Below, piece by piece: positions 52,665 through 62,520 of a stretch of DNA of 64,000 bases. The first letter of the stretch is position 1. Each line of letters opens with the position of its first letter. Both the position numbers and the translations under genes were made by a program. This stretch comes from Gemmatimonadota bacterium (GTDB taxonomy: Bacteria > Gemmatimonadota > Gemmatimonadetes > Palauibacterales > Palauibacteraceae), in the NCBI GenBank assembly GCA_039585235.1, contig JBDGWG010000003.1, positions 20,461 to 84,460 on the forward strand, written 5' to 3'. A model generated the notes under the pieces. That model ran no database searches and had not been told where the DNA came from. It worked only from the letters and a program-made list of their open reading frames with translations.

Positions 52665-53297
52665 ATGCAGGAGCAGCTGGAGGCCCTCCTTCACCTGGTC
52701 AGTGGCGTACCGGTCGAGACCGTCTACCTGCTCGTAGGTCTGGGTGCTGCCGTCGAAAACCTCTTTCCGCCCGTTCCGTCGGACCTAGTCGTGGTCGCCG
52801 GGGGCATTCTGGCGGATCGGGGAATCCTGGACGTCCGCCTCGTGTTCCTGGTGGCCTGGGCCAGCAACCTGCTGCTCGCTCTCTCCGTGTACGTCGCGGC
52901 TCTTCACTTCGGTGGCGGCATCTTCTCGACGCGCTGGGGTCGCTGGCTACTCAGACCGGCGCAGCTCGAGAGGATGTCGCTGTTCTACGCGGACTTCGGG
53001 ACGCTGACGATCCTGGTGAGCCGTTTCTTCCCCGTGTTCCGGGTGCTCGTTCCAGCCTTCGCGGGGATCAGTCGCCTCGGATTCTGGCGTACCGCGCTCC
53101 CACTGACAATCGCCTCAGCCGTGTGGTACGCGGCTCTCGTGTTCGGAGGGGTCCTCGCCTCCCGCAACATCCCTCGCATCGTCGGCGCCCTTACCGCCGT
53201 CAACACCACGGCGGGTGCGGTGGCTCTGCTGGTTGCCCTGGCCCTGGCGTGGCTGTGGTGGCGTTCCCGCCGGAGCGACGGCGAGGGAGCACCGTAA
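52665..53297 (+). CDS. DedA/TVP38 family membrane protein
   Basis: Motif VENLFPPVPSD together with the DedA TM pattern (LVSRFFPVFRVLVPAFAG). Confidence 0.8.
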   Translation: MQEQLEALLHLVSGVPVETVYLLVGLGAAVENLFPPVPSDLVVVAGGILADRGILDVRLVFLVAWASNLLLALSVYVAALHFGGGIFSTRWGRWLLRPAQLERMSLFYADFGTLTILVSRFFPVFRVLVPAFAGISRLGFWRTALPLTIASAVWYAALVFGGVLASRNIPRIVGALTAVNTTAGAVALLVALALAWLWWRSRRSDGEGAP

Positions 53298-54250
53298 TGG
53301 GAGGTCGTGGGGGAGAGCGTTCACGCGCCGCGAAGCCGGATGACGTGAGGCGTAGCTTCCGCCTCGAGGAGTTCTCGGATTTCCTCCGCTACGAAAGGGG
53401 CCTCGCTCCCCGCACGGTAGAGGCATATCTGGGAGACTGTGCGGCGCTCGCGAATTTCGCGACCGCGCGCGGGCTGACGGACCCAGGCACCGTCGATTAC
53501 CAGGCGTTGAGGGCGTATCTGGTCGATCTCGCCGGGCAGGGGTTGTCGGCTCGCAGCGTGGCCCGGCGCCGGTCGGCCCTGCGCACGTACTTTGGTTTTC
53601 TGGTCGAGGAGGGTCACCTGTCGCATGATCCCACGGAGAAGCTCGAGAGTCCCCGGCTCGACAAGACTCTTCCAAGTGTGCTGACCTATGCGGAAATCGA
53701 GTCGATCTTGGACACGGTCGGATCTCTGGCTCCGGATGCCCACCCCAACGCCACGCGCGACGCGGCCATGCTCGAGACCCTATACGGGGCAGGCCTGCGG
53801 ATCTCGGAACTCATAGGCCTGCGGATGCGGGACCTGTCTCTGGAGGAAGGTCTGATCGCGGTGCAGGGAAAGGGAGACAAGCGACGTCTGGTGCCGCTCG
53901 GAGGTCGTGCGGTCCGGGTGCTACAGCTATACCTTCGAGAGCGACGGCCGGAGCTCGACCGGCGCCGGTCGGAGGGGATGGTCTTCCTCAATCAGCACGG
54001 GCGTCCGCTGAGCCGCATGGGTGCCTGGAAGATCGTCGGGAAGCACGTGCGCAATGCCGGGGTCGAGAAGAAGGTCACTCCGCATACGTTCCGGCACAGT
54101 TTTGCGACGCATCTACTGGAAGGGGGCGCGGATCTGGTTGCCGTGCAGGAGATGTTGGGGCACGCGGACATATCTACGACCCAGATCTATACGCATGTGG
54201 ACCGCCGATACCTTCAAGAAGAGCATCGCCAGCACCATCCGCGGGGGTAG
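53297..54250 (+). CDS. xerD: Tyrosine recombinase XerD/XerC
   Basis: Motifs LERGLAPRTVEAY, RD..MLE.LYGAGLRISEL, HTFRHSFATHLLEGGADL..VQEMLGHADISTTQIYTHV. Start TAATG overlaps the dedA stop. Confidence 0.88.
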   Translation: MGGRGGERSRAAKPDDVRRSFRLEEFSDFLRYERGLAPRTVEAYLGDCAALANFATARGLTDPGTVDYQALRAYLVDLAGQGLSARSVARRRSALRTYFGFLVEEGHLSHDPTEKLESPRLDKTLPSVLTYAEIESILDTVGSLAPDAHPNATRDAAMLETLYGAGLRISELIGLRMRDLSLEEGLIAVQGKGDKRRLVPLGGRAVRVLQLYLRERRPELDRRRSEGMVFLNQHGRPLSRMGAWKIVGKHVRNAGVEKKVTPHTFRHSFATHLLEGGADLVAVQEMLGHADISTTQIYTHVDRRYLQEEHRQHHPRG

Positions 54251-54256
54251 CGCCGG

Positions 54257-54805
54257 GTGAGCGCCGTCTCTCGCGTACTCAACCTGTCGCGCAATCGGCA
54301 AGCCGTGAGGCGGTTCGCCGATCGCATGATCCCGCCCGAGATTCTGGCTCGGATTCTGGAATGTGCCCGGTACGCTCCGTCGGCGCGTGAGGACCAGCCC
54401 TGGCGCTTCATCGTGGTTCAGGATGCGCTCACCCGTCACCGGATCGCGCGAGCCGTGTTCCAGGGCGAGCTCATACGGACAGCTCCGGCGCTTGTCATCG
54501 GATGCGCGCGAGTCCACTCCAACATCGCGGGCAGCGGCCGCCCCAGCCATCCGGTCGACCTGGCCGCGGCCACGGAAGCGATGGTCCTGGCGGCTGCGGA
54601 CATGAGCCTTGCGACTGCGTGGGTCACCGGGTTCAGGGAAGGCGAGATCCGGGATGCGCTGGCCATTCCCGCCGACGTTCCCGTGGTCACGCTTCTGGCC
54701 CTGGGGTACCCCGACGGCTTCCAGCGTCTGCCGCAACGCCGGCCCGACGAGGAGATCATCGCGTGGGATGGCTGGGGCGCGACGGGGGGGCGACAGGAGC
54801 GGTGA
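54257..54805 (+). CDS. Nitroreductase-family protein
   Basis: Motif RRF...IPPEILARILECARYAPSA..DQPWRF and 182 aa, consistent with the nitroreductase fold. Confidence 0.72.
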   Translation: MSAVSRVLNLSRNRQAVRRFADRMIPPEILARILECARYAPSAREDQPWRFIVVQDALTRHRIARAVFQGELIRTAPALVIGCARVHSNIAGSGRPSHPVDLAAATEAMVLAAADMSLATAWVTGFREGEIRDALAIPADVPVVTLLALGYPDGFQRLPQRRPDEEIIAWDGWGATGGRQER

Positions 54806-54807
54806 GG

Positions 54808-56298
54808 ATGCGGGGTGCGCCGGCTCGCGGTCGTCGTCGGACGATCCTGCTTCTATGTCTGGTCGCCGGCTTGGTGGCTCCGTCTGTGCGGGCCCAGGAG
54901 GTCGCCTTTCATCCACGCCGTGGGAACGCGCTCGACGCGAGACTCGCGGACTTCCTCGCCCGGGGCGATGTGCAAGTGTGGACCCGGGATACGGTCGTGT
55001 CCTCCGATGGGCGCGTGGCGGGCGACGTTCTCGTGCTCGAGGCGCAAGTGCGCCTGGCCGGCTCGGTCGACGGAGATATCTACGTCGTGGACGGCGATCT
55101 CCTCATCAGGCCGGGTGCCCGCGTCTCGGGAGACATCGTCGTGCTTGGGGGGGGCTACTTCGGGTCCGGCATGTCCGAGATTGCCGGAGATGTCACCTGG
55201 CGTCCTGCGGATCGTTATTCGGTTCTGCCGGCGGACGCCGGCCTCGAGATTCATCCGGTTGCGGACGTTCCGGATGTCGTTGACTTGCACGGGTTGTACG
55301 GCTTCGAGGCACCGATCTACGAGCGCGTGGATGCCGTGACCGCTGTGTGGGGAATCACGCTGCGTGCGGCTACGTGGGCCTGGAGACCCACGCTCGAGCT
55401 GGTGGGGAGGTACCGCTCCGGACAGGGAGAGTTCGAGGGTACGGTGCGGCAGTTCTGGTATCCAGGTCCGGTCGAATTCGGGATCGAAGCCGAGCGCGTC
55501 GTGCGCACGAACGAGCGATGGATCCGCGCCGGTGTATCGAACTCGCTCTCTTACCTGTTTCTCGGCGACGATTTCAGAAACTACTACGGAGCCGACCGGG
55601 TTGCGCTCGTAGTGCGGGGAAGTGGGGACCGCTGGTGGACACCCCTCTTCCGGCTGGAATGGGAGGACGCTTGGAGCCGGAACGCGGGTGATCACTTCAC
55701 GTTCTTCGGGTCGGATACGGTGCGCGAGAACCCGACCATAGACGACGGTGAGACAGGCAGCGCAGCTCTGGCGGTCTCGGTGGACCGCCAGACAGGCGAT
55801 GCGGGGCGGCTCGTCGGTCAGGTCCTCCTGGAGGCGGCGGACTCCACGGTGGCCGGGGACTTTTCCTACCTACTCGGGGAGGTCACGGCGCGATGGACCA
55901 CTCCGGGCTTCGCGTCCCACGAACTGGACATCGTCGCACTGGCCAGAGGTGACCTGGCCGGAGACCTGCCAGGGCAGAGGTGGACCGGATTCGGGGGCCG
56001 AGCGACCCTTCCGACGCTCGGCGTGATGGGGGTCAGAGGGCCTCGCGTGGTGTACGGCCAGGTCGGCTATTCAATTCCCATCGAAGCCCTGCGCGCCGGT
56101 GAGCTGGGAGCCGTCGACGTGTTCGCCCGGGCCGGTACTGGAGCGGCCTGGGATGACGGCCAATCGGCCGACTGGCAGGTGAATCTGATCGCGGGCCTCC
56201 GGTTCTGGGTCCTCGAGGGAGGTGTCGCGGTGGATCCGGGCGCCAGTGGTGGAGACGTTCGAGGTTATGCGATCTTCAGGTTTCCCGGGGATCTCTGA
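54808..56298 (+). CDS. Secreted hypothetical protein: N-terminal DUF4097/bactofilin-like beta-helix repeats plus a C-terminal putative beta-barrel domain
   Basis: Signal peptide ILLLCLVAGLVAPSVRAQE. Repeats GDVLVLEAQVRLAGSVDGDIYVVDGDLLIRPGARVSGDIVVLGG. C-terminal half is rich in W/Y/F/G with alternating hydrophobic residues. It contains a G8 homopolymer. Confidence 0.55.
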   Translation: MRGAPARGRRRTILLLCLVAGLVAPSVRAQEVAFHPRRGNALDARLADFLARGDVQVWTRDTVVSSDGRVAGDVLVLEAQVRLAGSVDGDIYVVDGDLLIRPGARVSGDIVVLGGGYFGSGMSEIAGDVTWRPADRYSVLPADAGLEIHPVADVPDVVDLHGLYGFEAPIYERVDAVTAVWGITLRAATWAWRPTLELVGRYRSGQGEFEGTVRQFWYPGPVEFGIEAERVVRTNERWIRAGVSNSLSYLFLGDDFRNYYGADRVALVVRGSGDRWWTPLFRLEWEDAWSRNAGDHFTFFGSDTVRENPTIDDGETGSAALAVSVDRQTGDAGRLVGQVLLEAADSTVAGDFSYLLGEVTARWTTPGFASHELDIVALARGDLAGDLPGQRWTGFGGRATLPTLGVMGVRGPRVVYGQVGYSIPIEALRAGELGAVDVFARAGTGAAWDDGQSADWQVNLIAGLRFWVLEGGVAVDPGASGGDVRGYAIFRFPGDL

Positions 56299-56496
56299 TC
56301 GTGCGCCCTTTGACATCGCGTTCCGGAACGGATTACGTTACGGAGCGTGAAGTTAGCGCCATCACGCATTCGATTCCGACCTCCTGAGGTCGCTGTGCCT
56401 TCCGGCGAAGACCGTGCGTCGGCGTCCCTTCCGCAGCCATTCTTCAGCTATCAGAACCGTGGCCCGCAGGGCACCGTGATACGGAATTGAAAGTGA

Positions 56497-59002
<2,506 letters not shown>

Positions 59003-60566: not shown

Positions 60567-61150
60567 GCATACATCGGATCCACACCGTCGGTCACCCGGC
60601 AGGCGTCGCCCTTATCTGCGCGCTCGTGGCGCTGGGCTGCGAAGAAGAAAGCCAAAGACCGCTGGCGTCCGATACGCTTCTGGCACGCGAGGCCGACCAA
60701 GTGCTTGTTGGCGTGGAGATGAACCTGACTCGGGCCGGCGTTCGCAGCGCCCTTCTGGCAGCCGACACGGCGTTCAGCTTCCAGGACGCGGGCCTGCTCC
60801 AGTTGCGTAACCTGAAGATCACGTTCTACGGCGACACGGGACTTGAGGATGGAACGCTTACCGGTCGATCGGGCGAATACCGATTCGAAACGGGCGACGT
60901 GGAGGTAAAGGGCGCGGTCGAGGTCAAAGAGGCTGCCGGATCCAAGCGTCTCGTGACGCAGCGGCTACGCTATGACGCGGAAGCGGACTCGTTGTACGGA
61001 GACACCACCTTCGTGCTCTACCGGCCCGGTCTCCAGAGCAGGGGAGACAGCTTTGTCAGCGACGCGCAGCTGGAGAACGTTCAGATACTGAACCCGAGTT
61101 TTGTGTCGGAGGGGGATCCGGCTGCGGCTCGGAAGCCGCTGCCTGAATGA
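60563..61150 (+). CDS. lptC: LptC-like LPS export protein (lipoprotein-type)
   Basis: N-terminal signal/lipobox ALVALGC-EEE. Beta-rich OstA-like body. Position between kdsD and lptA. GTGA overlap with the kdsD stop. Confidence 0.62.
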   Translation: MSIHRIHTVGHPAGVALICALVALGCEEESQRPLASDTLLAREADQVLVGVEMNLTRAGVRSALLAADTAFSFQDAGLLQLRNLKITFYGDTGLEDGTLTGRSGEYRFETGDVEVKGAVEVKEAAGSKRLVTQRLRYDAEADSLYGDTTFVLYRPGLQSRGDSFVSDAQLENVQILNPSFVSEGDPAAARKPLPE

Positions 61151-62520
61151 TCACGCGCGTCGATCCGGGCACCGCCTTGCGACAGGCATCGGTGGTGCAC
61201 CTGGTCGGACTTGCGCTCGCGCACGTAGCGGTGCTGGCAGGCCCCCGCGCCGCCACGGCGCAGGACTCCCCGAGCTGTCAGCTGCGGGTCAGGGTCGTAG
61301 CGGAGGCCGGCTCGCGCGATCAGCCCAGAAGCAACATGCTGGCGATTCCTGGGGCGGAGGGGCGCTACGCCATGCACCTGGGCGGGGGACTGGTGCTCGG
61401 ACGGTGTGGCGACGCCTCGATGACAGGTGACAGCGCCGTTCACCTGGAACACATCGCCGAGGCCCTCATGATCGGCTCTGTACGATACCGGGACACCACG
61501 CGTGTTCTGGACGCGGAGCGCGTAACCTATTACGGCATGTGGGATCGAGTCGTATCCGAGGGCGATGTCCGGTTGGAACGGCTGGGGTCCGGCGCCACGC
61601 TGGAGGGGCCGCGGGTGGAATTCCTGCGGACTCCGTTCCGCGGAAGCCGCACCGTGGCCACGGGCCGTCCCCATATGACTCTGCCGACCGGAGGGCCCGC
61701 GACCGAGCCCTTCCTGGTCGATTCGGACGAGGCGGAGTTCCTGGGAGAAGAACGAGCGTTCGCGCGCGGCAACGTGGAGATTCACCGGTCGGACCTCGAT
61801 GCGACGGCGGATAGCGCTCGCTTCGATGCGGGAGGGCTTGGTGTGCTGTATGGGCGTCCGATCATTCGAGGCGAGGGATTCGAGCTGACGGGAGACAGCG
61901 TGCTGGCGCGGTTCTCGGAAGACGAGCTTCGAGAGGTAAGGTCGTTCGGGAATGCCGCGGCCACCGGCGAGGATTTCGAGTTGCAGGCGGACCTCGTGAC
62001 GGCCGAGATCACGGGGGGAGAAGTCGAACGCCTGTGGGCCTTTGGTGAAGGTCGCTCGATCGCCGTTTCGGGCAGTTTCCAATTGTCGGGTGACTCGATC
62101 GAGTTTTCCCTGACGGCGGGTCGGTTGGATTCGATTGCCTCGGTAGGGTCGGCCGCTTCGGTCGAGACGGAACCGTACGTCCCGGGAGCACCGCTGATCG
62201 AGGCGGTTCGGGATCTGGACCCTGGATCGAATTGGCTGACGGGCGACACGATCCGTGCCTTCTTCTCCGCCTCGTCGATCGACTCGCTCGGAGCGCCCTC
62301 GGAAGCTGCCCCGACTCCTGAGCGTTTGCGCGCTCTTGGCAACGCCCGATCGTTCTACGCCTCCGTGAGAGATTCTGCGCGGTCCGAGTCCCCGTCAAGG
62401 AACTACCTCCTCGGCAACAACATCGAAGTTCTGTTCCGTGACGGGGAGCCATCTGAGGTGGTCGCGAAGGACGCCATAGGCATCTACCTCGAGCCCTCAA
62501 CCGAAGGAGGCGGTGGGTGA
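61147..62520 (+). CDS. lptA: Elongated LptA/OstA-family periplasmic LPS transport protein (457 aa, multiple OstA-like repeats)
   Basis: Signal-peptide-like N-terminus. Repeated ~60-80-aa units with patterns such as GDSVLARF...VRSFGNA...LTA. Located immediately upstream of lptB. ATGA overlap with lptC. Confidence 0.62.

Follow-up and report, generated by a model that had tools for sequence, protein, structure and literature searches.

We consider it likely that the 496 aa protein encoded by gene X (54808..56298) is a vertically inherited outer-membrane Omp85 protein of the Gemmatimonadota, in which a beta-helix takes the place of the POTRA domains and for which the poly-G tracts inside and ahead of the gene are incidental. 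Positions refer to the window, that is the whole stretch of 64,000 nt that was analysed, and all features of X and of the gene upstream of it lie on the plus strand. The coding sequence comprises a signal peptide, a bactofilin-like beta-helix and an Omp85-type barrel of 16 strands. According to the models, once the protein is exported by Sec and its signal peptide cleaved, the C-terminal ~325 aa form the barrel and the N-terminal ~120 aa fold as a short bactofilin-type right-handed beta-helix instead of POTRA domains. The mechanism is most likely Omp85-like: the beta1 edge and gate of the barrel would receive a client or place it in the outer membrane, and the beta-helix would take over from POTRA in docking or in handling substrates on the periplasmic side.

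The start region, the signal peptide and the beta-helix

An AGGAG Shine-Dalgarno-like sequence (54795..54799) can be read 8 nt 5' of the ATG at 54808, and an in-frame GTG at 54802 overlaps the TGA stop codon (54803-54805) of the upstream gene. This gene (54257..54805) belongs to the nitroreductase family (Pfam PF00881, E 2e-21) and ends 2 nt before X, and the two are probably co-transcribed. In most loci the junction between the upstream ORF and X falls between about -28 and +50 nt. Despite this tight coupling the nitroreductase is not a conserved partner of X, and we rejected it as a functional one, as it is replaced by a GATase-like ORF (by inspection) in the Gemmatimonadaceae-type locus L073. 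No sites were returned when 53200-56700 was scanned for promoters and terminators, and an Rfam scan of 54000-56700 gave no credible match.

The signal peptide described in the earlier note is borne out by inspection and by the homologs. The N-terminus reads MRGAPARGRRR-TILLLCLVAGLVAP-SVRA, followed by QE, and has the n-region, h-region and AxA-like pattern of a Sec signal peptide spanning aa 1-29 (54808..54894), with cleavage predicted between VRA and QE. Equivalent signal peptides are present in all 31 aligned homologs, and the Gln just past the predicted cut (Q30) is invariant in the 32 aligned sequences. In the AF2 model this region is a low-pLDDT helix (aa 8-21). A lipoprotein reading by way of Cys17 was also considered and rejected, since LLLC does not make a lipobox and the residue is not kept in the homologs.

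According to DSSP of the AF2 models, a short strand (aa 31-34) and an alpha-helix (aa 41-51) in the segment aa 30-54 (54895..54969) precede the right-handed bactofilin-type beta-helix, which consists of five ~19-aa xGD(V/I)xV windings and a terminal beta-hairpin (aa 55-150, 54970..55257). About five repeats on a pitch of ~18-20 aa had been noted before, and we find xGD(V/I) starts at aa 53, 72, 89, 108 and 127 and one more at aa 96, so that the repeats are spaced 17-19 aa apart. For the N-domain, the model (pLDDT 89) has a bactofilin as its best structural match, and the right-handed beta-helix with ~18-aa windings that bactofilins have is predicted for X. The Bactofilin family PF04519, the sole family that Pfam gives for X, scores 24.0 bits, which is under the gathering threshold of 27.9, and 27 of 32 homologs likewise have sub-threshold Bactofilin scores in Pfam. 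DUF4097 (PF13349) gave no match at E<=1 for X and was absent among the families at E<=5 for the 32 homologs. Of the two folds named in the earlier note, DUF4097 and bactofilin, it is the second that stands, by the N-domain model and the sub-threshold Pfam scores. The beta-helix is among the best-conserved parts of X, and is more conserved than the strands of the barrel.

Bactofilins such as BacA and TtBac are cytoplasmic, free-standing proteins that form end-to-end polymers. The domain of X differs from these in being exported, fused to a barrel, below the Pfam threshold and apparently capped at both ends. Judged from secondary structure alone and not from coordinates, the capping would be provided by the N-terminal alpha-helix on one side and the C-terminal hairpin on the other. 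With a signal peptide in front of it and an outer-membrane barrel behind, the domain is unlikely to be cytoplasmic. For these reasons the name 'polymer-forming cytoskeletal protein', which PGAP gives in the X family, is misleading for X.

The barrel and its relation to Omp85 proteins

The C-terminal 331 aa contain 13.9% Gly and 12.4% F/W/Y, in line with the Gly- and aromatic-rich C-terminus from which a beta-barrel had been suspected. Both the beta-helix and the barrel appear in the AF2 models, and the full-length model (pLDDT 85.5) has 16 long strands that make up a barrel of the Omp85 superfamily at aa 166-490 (55303..56277). The top 50 Foldseek matches of this model all belong to the Omp85 superfamily. 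TamA is the best structural match, the TamAB hybrid-barrel state is among the matches, and TamA, BamA and Sam50 outscore the TpsB proteins. A classical (type Va) autotransporter, which has a 12-stranded translocator barrel, was rejected as the barrel of X is 16-stranded and Omp85-like; no autotransporter family matched X in Pfam.

At the sequence level the relation is found through intermediates. The Omp85 profile PF01103 gave no match at E<=1 for X or 32 close homologs, NCBIfam gave no match for X, and no significant match was found among PDB sequences, whether the query was X alone or a profile. The positional ortholog P0226 shares the gene context xerD-X-...-kdsB-pyrG-kdsA. It matches the family profile with an E of 5e-55 and X itself by BLASTP at 3e-36, and scores 46.5 bits against PF01103 (cut-off 24). 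PF01103 is found in the P0226 subclade, one member of which is named 'BamA/TamA family outer membrane protein [Gemmatimonadota]' by PGAP, and from this subclade proteins with POTRA and Omp85 domains are reached by weaker matches (E 2e-9). The BamA model TIGR03303 is matched by 2 of 76 distant family members. Judged by this chain of sequences, X is homologous to bona fide Omp85 proteins, and its Omp85 membership rests on predicted structure together with transitive homology.

Sub-threshold matches to DUF5686 (PF18939) were detected in 12 of 32 family members, with a best E of 1.3e-5 and a best score of 24.3 bits, below the cut-off of 39.2. The match runs over aa ~165-320, the barrel's first half, and positions ~335-486 of the 669-position model, and suggests from sequence that X and DUF5686, to our knowledge itself uncharacterised, share an Omp85-like barrel lineage.

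In Omp85 proteins beta1 forms the lateral-gate or template edge, and L6 is the loop inserted into the lumen. The linker, beta1 and L1 of X carry the nearly invariant motif HGLYGFEAPIYERVD (aa 161-175, 55288..55332; G165, P169, Y171, R173), and column counts in the family alignments are 70/76 for P169, 73/76 for Y171 and 75/76 for R173. By conservation and family-profile alignment, L6 lies between beta11 and beta12 (aa 386-412, 55963..56043) with the motif PxQRWxxFGGRATLPT(F/L). X does have this loop, which is long and highly conserved, yet the aligned tetrad is LPT(F/L) and not the canonical (V/I)RG(F/Y). The segment GGRATLPTL (aa 396-404, 55993..56019) seems to correspond to the hallmark GGxxx(V/I)RG(F/Y) of Omp85 proteins, with Pro-Thr instead of Arg-Gly; position 402 is P in 41 and R in 4 of 76 family members, and position 403 is T in 64 and G in 2. 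The profile alignment to BamA and TamA is weak (1-3 bits), yet it is in register with both, so that GGxxTLPT of the X family falls on GGSSTVRGF of BamA and GGDRSIRGY of TamA from E. coli. The turns are short and variable on the side where both termini lie, and the long conserved loops L3, L4 and L6 lie opposite. The most conserved elements of the barrel are beta1 (GxxxPxYxRVD), L3 and L6, which are as conserved as the beta-helix, and it is for this reason that we propose an Omp85-like mechanism.

In comparison with TamA and BamA, X has no POTRA domain (there is no POTRA match in Pfam in X or its homologs, and the N-domain is modelled as a beta-helix of the bactofilin type), has an invariant Pro in beta1, lacks a direct Pfam or NCBIfam match and, at 496 aa, is far smaller than BamA. 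POTRA domains and the Arg-Gly of L6 are normally held to be important for Omp85 function, and without them X may have no insertase or translocase activity altogether. POTRA domains are not universal in Omp85 proteins, since the non-POTRA subfamilies noNterm, WD40-Omp85 and Metallo-Omp85 have been described by Heinz & Lithgow in 2014 (PMC4104836), and the noNterm Omp85s of Leptospira consist of a barrel without the POTRA region (PMC11358297). X resembles these proteins in that the POTRA region is missing or exchanged for an unrelated domain. None of the ten described Omp85 subfamilies, however, has a beta-helix or bactofilin N-domain, and the non-POTRA subfamilies are described as patchy or prone to horizontal transfer, in contrast to X as a syntenic core gene of one phylum. 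In the literature searched we found no description of an architecture that joins Omp85 to a bactofilin or a beta-helix, and nothing on the X architecture under Omp85 in Gemmatimonad, Gemmatimonas BamA, DUF5686, or Omp85 with carboxypeptidase-regulatory.

The N-terminal domains of Omp85 superfamily proteins are periplasmic. From this family topology we infer that the beta-helix of X hangs in the periplasm. The signal peptide, recognised by inspection, and the sides on which the turns and loops of the barrel fall are indirect evidence for such an arrangement at the outer membrane. Surface-passenger models were originally proposed for the type Vd protein PlpD, and TpsB proteins export the beta-helical TpsA. 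By analogy X could be a self-exporting type V-like protein, with the beta-helix as a passenger that reaches the surface through, or next to, its own Omp85 barrel. We find this very unlikely, as X is without POTRA, the passenger-handling domain of Vb and Vd systems, and TpsB proteins score below TamA, BamA and Sam50. The beta-helix is moreover short (about 5 turns) and better conserved than the barrel strands, and the short, nearly invariant linker to beta1 leaves little slack for translocation. For PlpD itself it has been shown experimentally that the N-terminal domain stays periplasmic (PMC11116518). PlpD is like X in carrying a non-POTRA functional domain N-terminal to an Omp85 barrel, but it keeps one POTRA and carries an enzyme, while X has no POTRA and a non-enzymatic repeat fold.

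PlpD also serves as a precedent for a structural role, as its Omp85 barrel, for which no part in assembly is known, carries a functional domain in the periplasm. X might be a tether or scaffold in which the barrel is an anchor only. The periplasmic bactofilin-like domain would then form oligomers, or bind peptidoglycan or other parts of the envelope, and thereby organise the outer membrane or attach it. The bactofilin fold of the N-domain speaks for such a role, and the loss of both POTRA and the L6 Arg-Gly would be in keeping with a lack of insertase or translocase activity. The apparent capping of both beta-helix ends in the model, read from secondary structure alone, speaks against end-to-end polymerisation, and the conservation of beta1, L3 and L6 goes beyond the needs of a passive anchor. 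We therefore regard a purely structural role as unlikely, and favour the docking or insertion of a client by an Omp85-type barrel.

The poly-G tracts

The earlier note pointed out a G8 tract inside the coding sequence and a G7 tract ahead of it, and both are in place. The G8 (55147..55154) falls in codons G114-G116 of the conserved LGGGY (CTT GGG GGG GGC TAC, L113 to Y117), and the G7 (54784..54790) is part of the final codons of the nitroreductase gene, 5' of the RBS and 17 nt before the ATG. It was proposed that X is a putative adhesin whose expression is phase-variable by slipped-strand mispairing. On this account a surface-exposed beta-helix on a generic beta-barrel would be switched ON and OFF by slippage at the G8, causing a frameshift, and/or at the G7. 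Our results largely refute this proposal, which we now take to be extremely improbable.

Firstly, the G8 is unique to this lineage; at the same site the longest G-run in each of the 54 other orthologous loci scored is 2-6 nt, and the closest relatives have GGC GGT GGC or GGC GGG GGC. Judged by these sequences, the G8 stems from synonymous Gly codons that are particular to this lineage. Secondly, the independent contig L089, which is 99.9% identical, has the same G7 and G8 lengths with no indel. The G7 codes for the upstream gene, and its counterpart in the 86%-identical L001 has become a G8 through substitutions and not slippage, with no indel and with the stop codon conserved. The G7 thus sits in an upstream coding region tightly coupled to X and not in a promoter spacer, for which the empty promoter, terminator and Rfam scans give no evidence either.

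Thirdly, there is no homopolymer enrichment in the window, which has 64.9% GC. Against a crude iid null from base composition, computed for the window only, 5 G-runs of >=7 were observed where 26 were expected, 2 of >=8 where 9 were expected, and 2 C-runs of >=7 where 9.8 were expected. The other runs of >=7 are found in ispD, nuoL, pyrG (G8, 56547-56554) and coaBC (C9, 1189-1197), in addition to a C7 without assignment. Hence neither the length variation among relatives nor the enrichment or concentration in surface genes that marks phase-variable genes was seen. Both tracts look like by-products of G-rich codon use, with Gly encoded by GGG, in a genome of 65% GC; they would be incidental and no regulatory switch.

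The surface location suffers from the barrel itself, as an Omp85-type barrel implies a periplasmic N-domain. The beta-helix is also well conserved, unlike the variable, exposed part of an adhesin, and a single-copy syntenic core gene is unlike a contingency locus.

Distribution, gene order and possible function

The 80 loci with X that were fetched all come from Gemmatimonadota MAGs, except for one mislabelled bin, with one locus per genome record and identities to X from 88% down to 27%. There are more than 159 full-length homologs of X, and 209 clusters at 50% identity, mostly full length, match the family profile at E<=1e-30. X has a fixed position in the fetched loci, xerD-(small enzyme)-X-(kdsB)-pyrG-(kdsA/C/D)-lptC-lptA-like-lptB. 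X is a vertically inherited, single-copy syntenic core gene of the Gemmatimonadota.

The fixed position directly upstream of kdsB, pyrG, kdsA-C-D and lptC-A-B suggests that X acts in outer-membrane biogenesis. More specifically, X could be the outer-membrane terminus of lipid or LPS transport, working with the Kdo and Lpt genes and perhaps docking the LptA-like protein or a TamB/AsmA-like bridge, much as TamA docks TamB. The order X-(kdsB)-pyrG-(kdsA-kdsC-kdsD)-lptC-lptA_long-lptB occurs in every locus with enough flank, the order being scored where flanks exist, and is kept down to 27% identity. TamA as the best structural match and the TamAB hybrid-barrel state among the matches point the same way, as does the LptA-like ORF (61147-62520), which is unusually long (457 aa) and has no Pfam match here and a faint LptD_N match in relatives. 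On the other hand, the neighbours xerD, ispF, purE and fabF, which are unrelated genes, are equally syntenic, and the linkage of X to the kds and lpt genes may just be a matter of rigid phylum-wide gene order. The gap from X to the downstream gene is about 70-250 nt in most loci, because of which an operon with kdsB/pyrG is not established, and the beta-helix differs from the beta-jellyroll and beta-taco of known lipid bridges. We thus give such a terminus a slim chance only. That X represents a new Omp85 subfamily acting as a dedicated Kdo/Lpt component of the outer membrane, with a docking site or gate for the long LptA-like protein or a TamB-like bridge, we hold to be rather improbable; if true, it would amount to a non-canonical route by which LPS or lipids reach the outer membrane.

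Omp85 proteins are the central machinery for assembling outer membranes, in mitochondria and chloroplasts as well as in bacteria, and periplasmic POTRA domains together with the VRGF of L6 are treated as near-defining for them. X is an undescribed Omp85 architecture with a proposed function, in a subfamily so far confined to the Gemmatimonadota. The idea of phase variation through its poly-G tracts can be dropped, and annotation as 'polymer-forming cytoskeletal protein' or 'hypothetical' misleads for the X subclade. The beta-helix of X would be a case of a cytoskeletal fold re-used in the periplasm. As a phylum-wide single-copy Omp85 paralog without POTRA and with a rewritten L6, X is also a natural experiment from which one could learn what the Omp85 mechanism can do without.

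Gene start, leader and database matches

The 496-aa protein X is encoded by the ORF at 54808-56298 (+). Its start codon is the ATG at 54808 (not 54809), with an AGGAG read from the sequence 8 nt upstream, and only 2 nt separate it from the stop of the nitroreductase-family gene before it (54257-54805, +), whose TGA overlaps a GTG at 54802 in frame with X. By sequence, a basic n-region, a hydrophobic core and a VRA/QE site are recognisable at the N-terminus; 31/31 aligned homologs carry a comparable leader, and the Gln directly behind it is invariant. Repeats of xGD(V/I) start at aa 53, 72, 89, 108 and 127, with an additional one at 96. The JGI gene call P0001 (470 aa, identical protein) begins at an internal GTG (window 54886, position 1489 of its contig L089) and loses the signal peptide. 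This start and the name 'polymer-forming cytoskeletal protein', given by PGAP to some orthologs, are both misleading.

The sole Pfam match of X was Bactofilin, below threshold at 24 bits against a cut-off of 27.9. No DUF4097, Omp85 or autotransporter match was detected in Pfam, hence the DUF4097-type reading of the earlier note is not supported; searches of NCBIfam and PDB sequences returned nothing. More than 159 full-length homologs (identity 43-86%) are nearly all without a name, 'hypothetical' or 'polymer-forming cytoskeletal protein', and those named are all from Gemmatimonadota MAGs. When 1.84 billion representatives were searched with the family profile, 209 clusters matched at E<=1e-30, mostly proteins of 490-530 aa aligned end to end. 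In 12 of 32 close homologs the first half of the barrel aligned, below threshold, with the C-terminal half of the model for DUF5686, an uncharacterised family. One member, P0157 (963 aa, on a 3.5 kb Logan contig), joins an N-terminal amidohydrolase domain (aa 97-440) to an X-like region (aa 486-955), which could reflect a genuine fusion or a gene call merged on a short contig.

An Omp85-type barrel with a beta-helix

The AlphaFold2 model of X, built on a 32-sequence alignment (pLDDT 85.5), shows in order a leader helix, a strand and a helix, the beta-helix and 16 long strands (aa 166-490). The two-domain design proposed earlier, a secreted beta-helix plus a beta-barrel, is thus borne out, the leader by sequence and both domains by the model. 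In structure comparison TamA scored highest (22.0 full length; 21.3 for the barrel only, over 273 aa at 3.9 A), followed by D. radiodurans BamA (21.1), Sam50 (about 21), Toc75 (19) and CdiB and FhaC (15-17), with porins and other 16-18-strand barrels at 10-14. Foldseek agreed with these scores; its best 50 matches were all Omp85, with a TM of 0.71 against barrel-only TamA.

The Pfam Omp85 threshold was passed by 2/76 distant family members, and two touched the BamA model TIGR03303. The 537-aa member P0226 reached 46.5 bits for Omp85 (cut-off 24), matched the family profile at E 5e-55 and X by BLASTP at 3e-36 across both beta-helix and barrel, and lies in the same gene order as X (xerD-X-...-kdsB-...-pyrG-kdsA-kdsC-kdsD); it is hence a positional ortholog. 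PF01103 is uniform in its subclade, which includes a protein named by PGAP 'BamA/TamA family outer membrane protein [Gemmatimonadota bacterium]' and whose weaker matches extend to canonical POTRA+Omp85 proteins. Taking the model together with these matches, the barrel of X is predicted to be of the Omp85 type. In a locus of this subclade (L090, 2648-3478) a PdaC/DUF3298-domain gene lies between the X ortholog and kdsB, overlapping the stop of the former by 4 nt, and is a possible lineage-specific partner.

X departs from canonical Omp85 proteins in several respects. The POTRA is absent, and a bactofilin-type beta-helix holds its place. Loop L6 (aa 386-412) joins strands beta11 and beta12 and in Omp85 proteins inserts into the lumen. 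Here it is long and ranks with the best-conserved segments, and the hallmark (V/I)RG(F/Y) is replaced by LPT(F/L) in the X family. The family-profile alignment sets GGxxTLPT over GGSSTVRGF of BamA and GGDRSIRGY of TamA, with weak scores but an identical register for both. Position 402 is Pro in 41/76 members and Arg in only 4/76, and position 403 is Thr in 64/76. Strand beta1 and its approach, HGLYGFxxPxYxRVD with a Pro within the strand, are nearly invariant. Conservation is highest in the beta-helix, L1, L3 and L6, and lowest in the short turns on the same side as the termini. In outer-membrane proteins the periplasmic turns are usually short and the outer loops longer, and this pattern fits a periplasmic beta-helix. 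None of the papers searched pairs Omp85 with bactofilin. Of the ten Omp85/TpsB subfamilies of Heinz & Lithgow (PMC4104836), some lack POTRA (noNterm, WD40, Metallo) and none has a beta-helix.

Poly-G tracts

The earlier note correctly placed a G7 run (54784-54790, +) in the last codons of the nitroreductase-family gene and a G8 run (55147-55154, +) within X, where CTT GGG GGG GGC TAC encodes L113-G-G-G-Y117, and suggested that they could be slipped-strand switches of a surface-protein gene. Homopolymers are not above chance in the window (GC 64.9%): from base composition about 26 G-runs of >=7 and about 9 of >=8 are expected, against 5 and 2 observed. Four of the five other long runs lie in housekeeping, non-surface genes, namely a second G8 at the 5' end of pyrG (56547-56554), one G7 each in ispD and nuoL, and the longest homopolymer, a C9 (1189-1197) in coaBC (Dfp, 477-1673); a C7 (12206-12212) was assigned to no gene.

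The tri-glycine encoded by G8 is strongly conserved, G115 and G116 being invariant, and outside the window lineage its codons are mixed GGN (GGC GGT GGC or GGC GGG GGC in the nearest relatives), so that the longest G-run is 2-6 nt in the 54 other orthologous loci where the motif could be placed. The independent JGI contig L089 (99.9% identity over 3.7 kb) is free of indels at both tracts. An 86%-identical relative carries G8 at the upstream site, and as the alignment is gap-free and the nitroreductase stop kept, this difference is a substitution and not slippage. A sequence scan found no sigma-70-like promoter or terminator between xerD and pyrG, and with X so close behind the upstream stop codon the G7 belongs to a coding region and not to a promoter spacer. 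Phase variation is thus unsupported by the sequences compared, and we give the phase-variable adhesin lower weight.

L089 differs from the window at four points (54704, 55090, 55108, 55282) and lacks about 38 nt inside pyrG (L089 3761-3765, window 57158-57200), which splits its pyrG call in two; the missing stretch reflects an error of assembly or else variation between strains.

Gene neighbourhood and possible function

A scan of GTDB species representatives revealed 80 loci, with identity to X from 88% down to 27%, spanning Gemmatimonadaceae, Gemmatimonadales and Longimicrobiales; it used family-specific peptide patterns and says nothing on absence from other phyla. All are Gemmatimonadota except L014 (CAXMRU010000224.1), binned as 'Akkermansiaceae bacterium', which has a 74%-identical ortholog in full Gemmatimonadota gene order and is probably bin contamination. 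X is a single syntenic locus per genome record, and every locus with enough flank has the one-strand order fabF-(2 radical-SAM)-(purE)-ispF-DedA-xerD-(small enzyme)-X-(kdsB)-pyrG-(kdsA-kdsC-kdsD)-lptC-long LptA-like-lptB. The window is strongly asymmetric on the + strand (G 22,318, C 19,187), and this strand carries every gene identified between 44 and 64 kb.

Most lineages have a nitroreductase as the small enzyme, tightly coupled to X. Locus L073, of the Gemmatimonadaceae type, has another ORF in its place, GATase-like as judged from its sequence, which rules out the nitroreductase as a functional partner. Downstream of X the gap is about 70-250 nt as estimated by tblastn, and in the L005 gene call X and kdsB overlap by 4 nt. 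In the window the X-pyrG gap (56299-56502) measures 204 nt, and close relatives keep it at 203-206 nt. Its predicted folding is somewhat better than that of shuffled sequences (z -2.8); it contains TTGACA (56310-56315), had no Rfam match and could include a promoter or leader for pyrG. The ORF at 61147-62520 (+, 457 aa), in the LptA position between lptC and lptB, is far longer than typical LptA and kept in nearly all related loci; it had no Pfam match, its relatives (447-454 aa) gave only a 'faint' LptD_N match, and the ORF could encode an elongated form of Lpt bridge protein.

A TamA-like or LptD-like partner of the adjacent lipid/LPS transport genes would agree with the phylum-wide association of X with Kdo/LPS-transport genes, but that with unrelated housekeeping genes is equally wide. 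Vertical inheritance and the character of a core gene follow more firmly from the synteny than does a specific pathway, and we give this alternative lower weight.

X is exported, with a bactofilin-type N-domain, an Omp85-type barrel, an altered L6 and a conserved beta1. By Omp85 topology, and with PlpD as experimental precedent for a periplasmic domain on an Omp85 barrel (PMC11116518), we infer that the beta-helix is periplasmic; the adhesin reading does not hold on this placement, and a type-V-like protein with a surface passenger is also less favoured. The beta-helix most likely substitutes for POTRA as a rigid periplasmic docking or hand-over module, and the beta1 edge and lumenal loops would dock or insert a client in the Omp85 manner during outer-membrane biogenesis. 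Less weight goes to the barrel being no more than a passive tether or scaffold. X probably functions in envelope biogenesis. In its architecture it represents a new variant within a well-known superfamily, conserved phylum-wide and largely mis-annotated.
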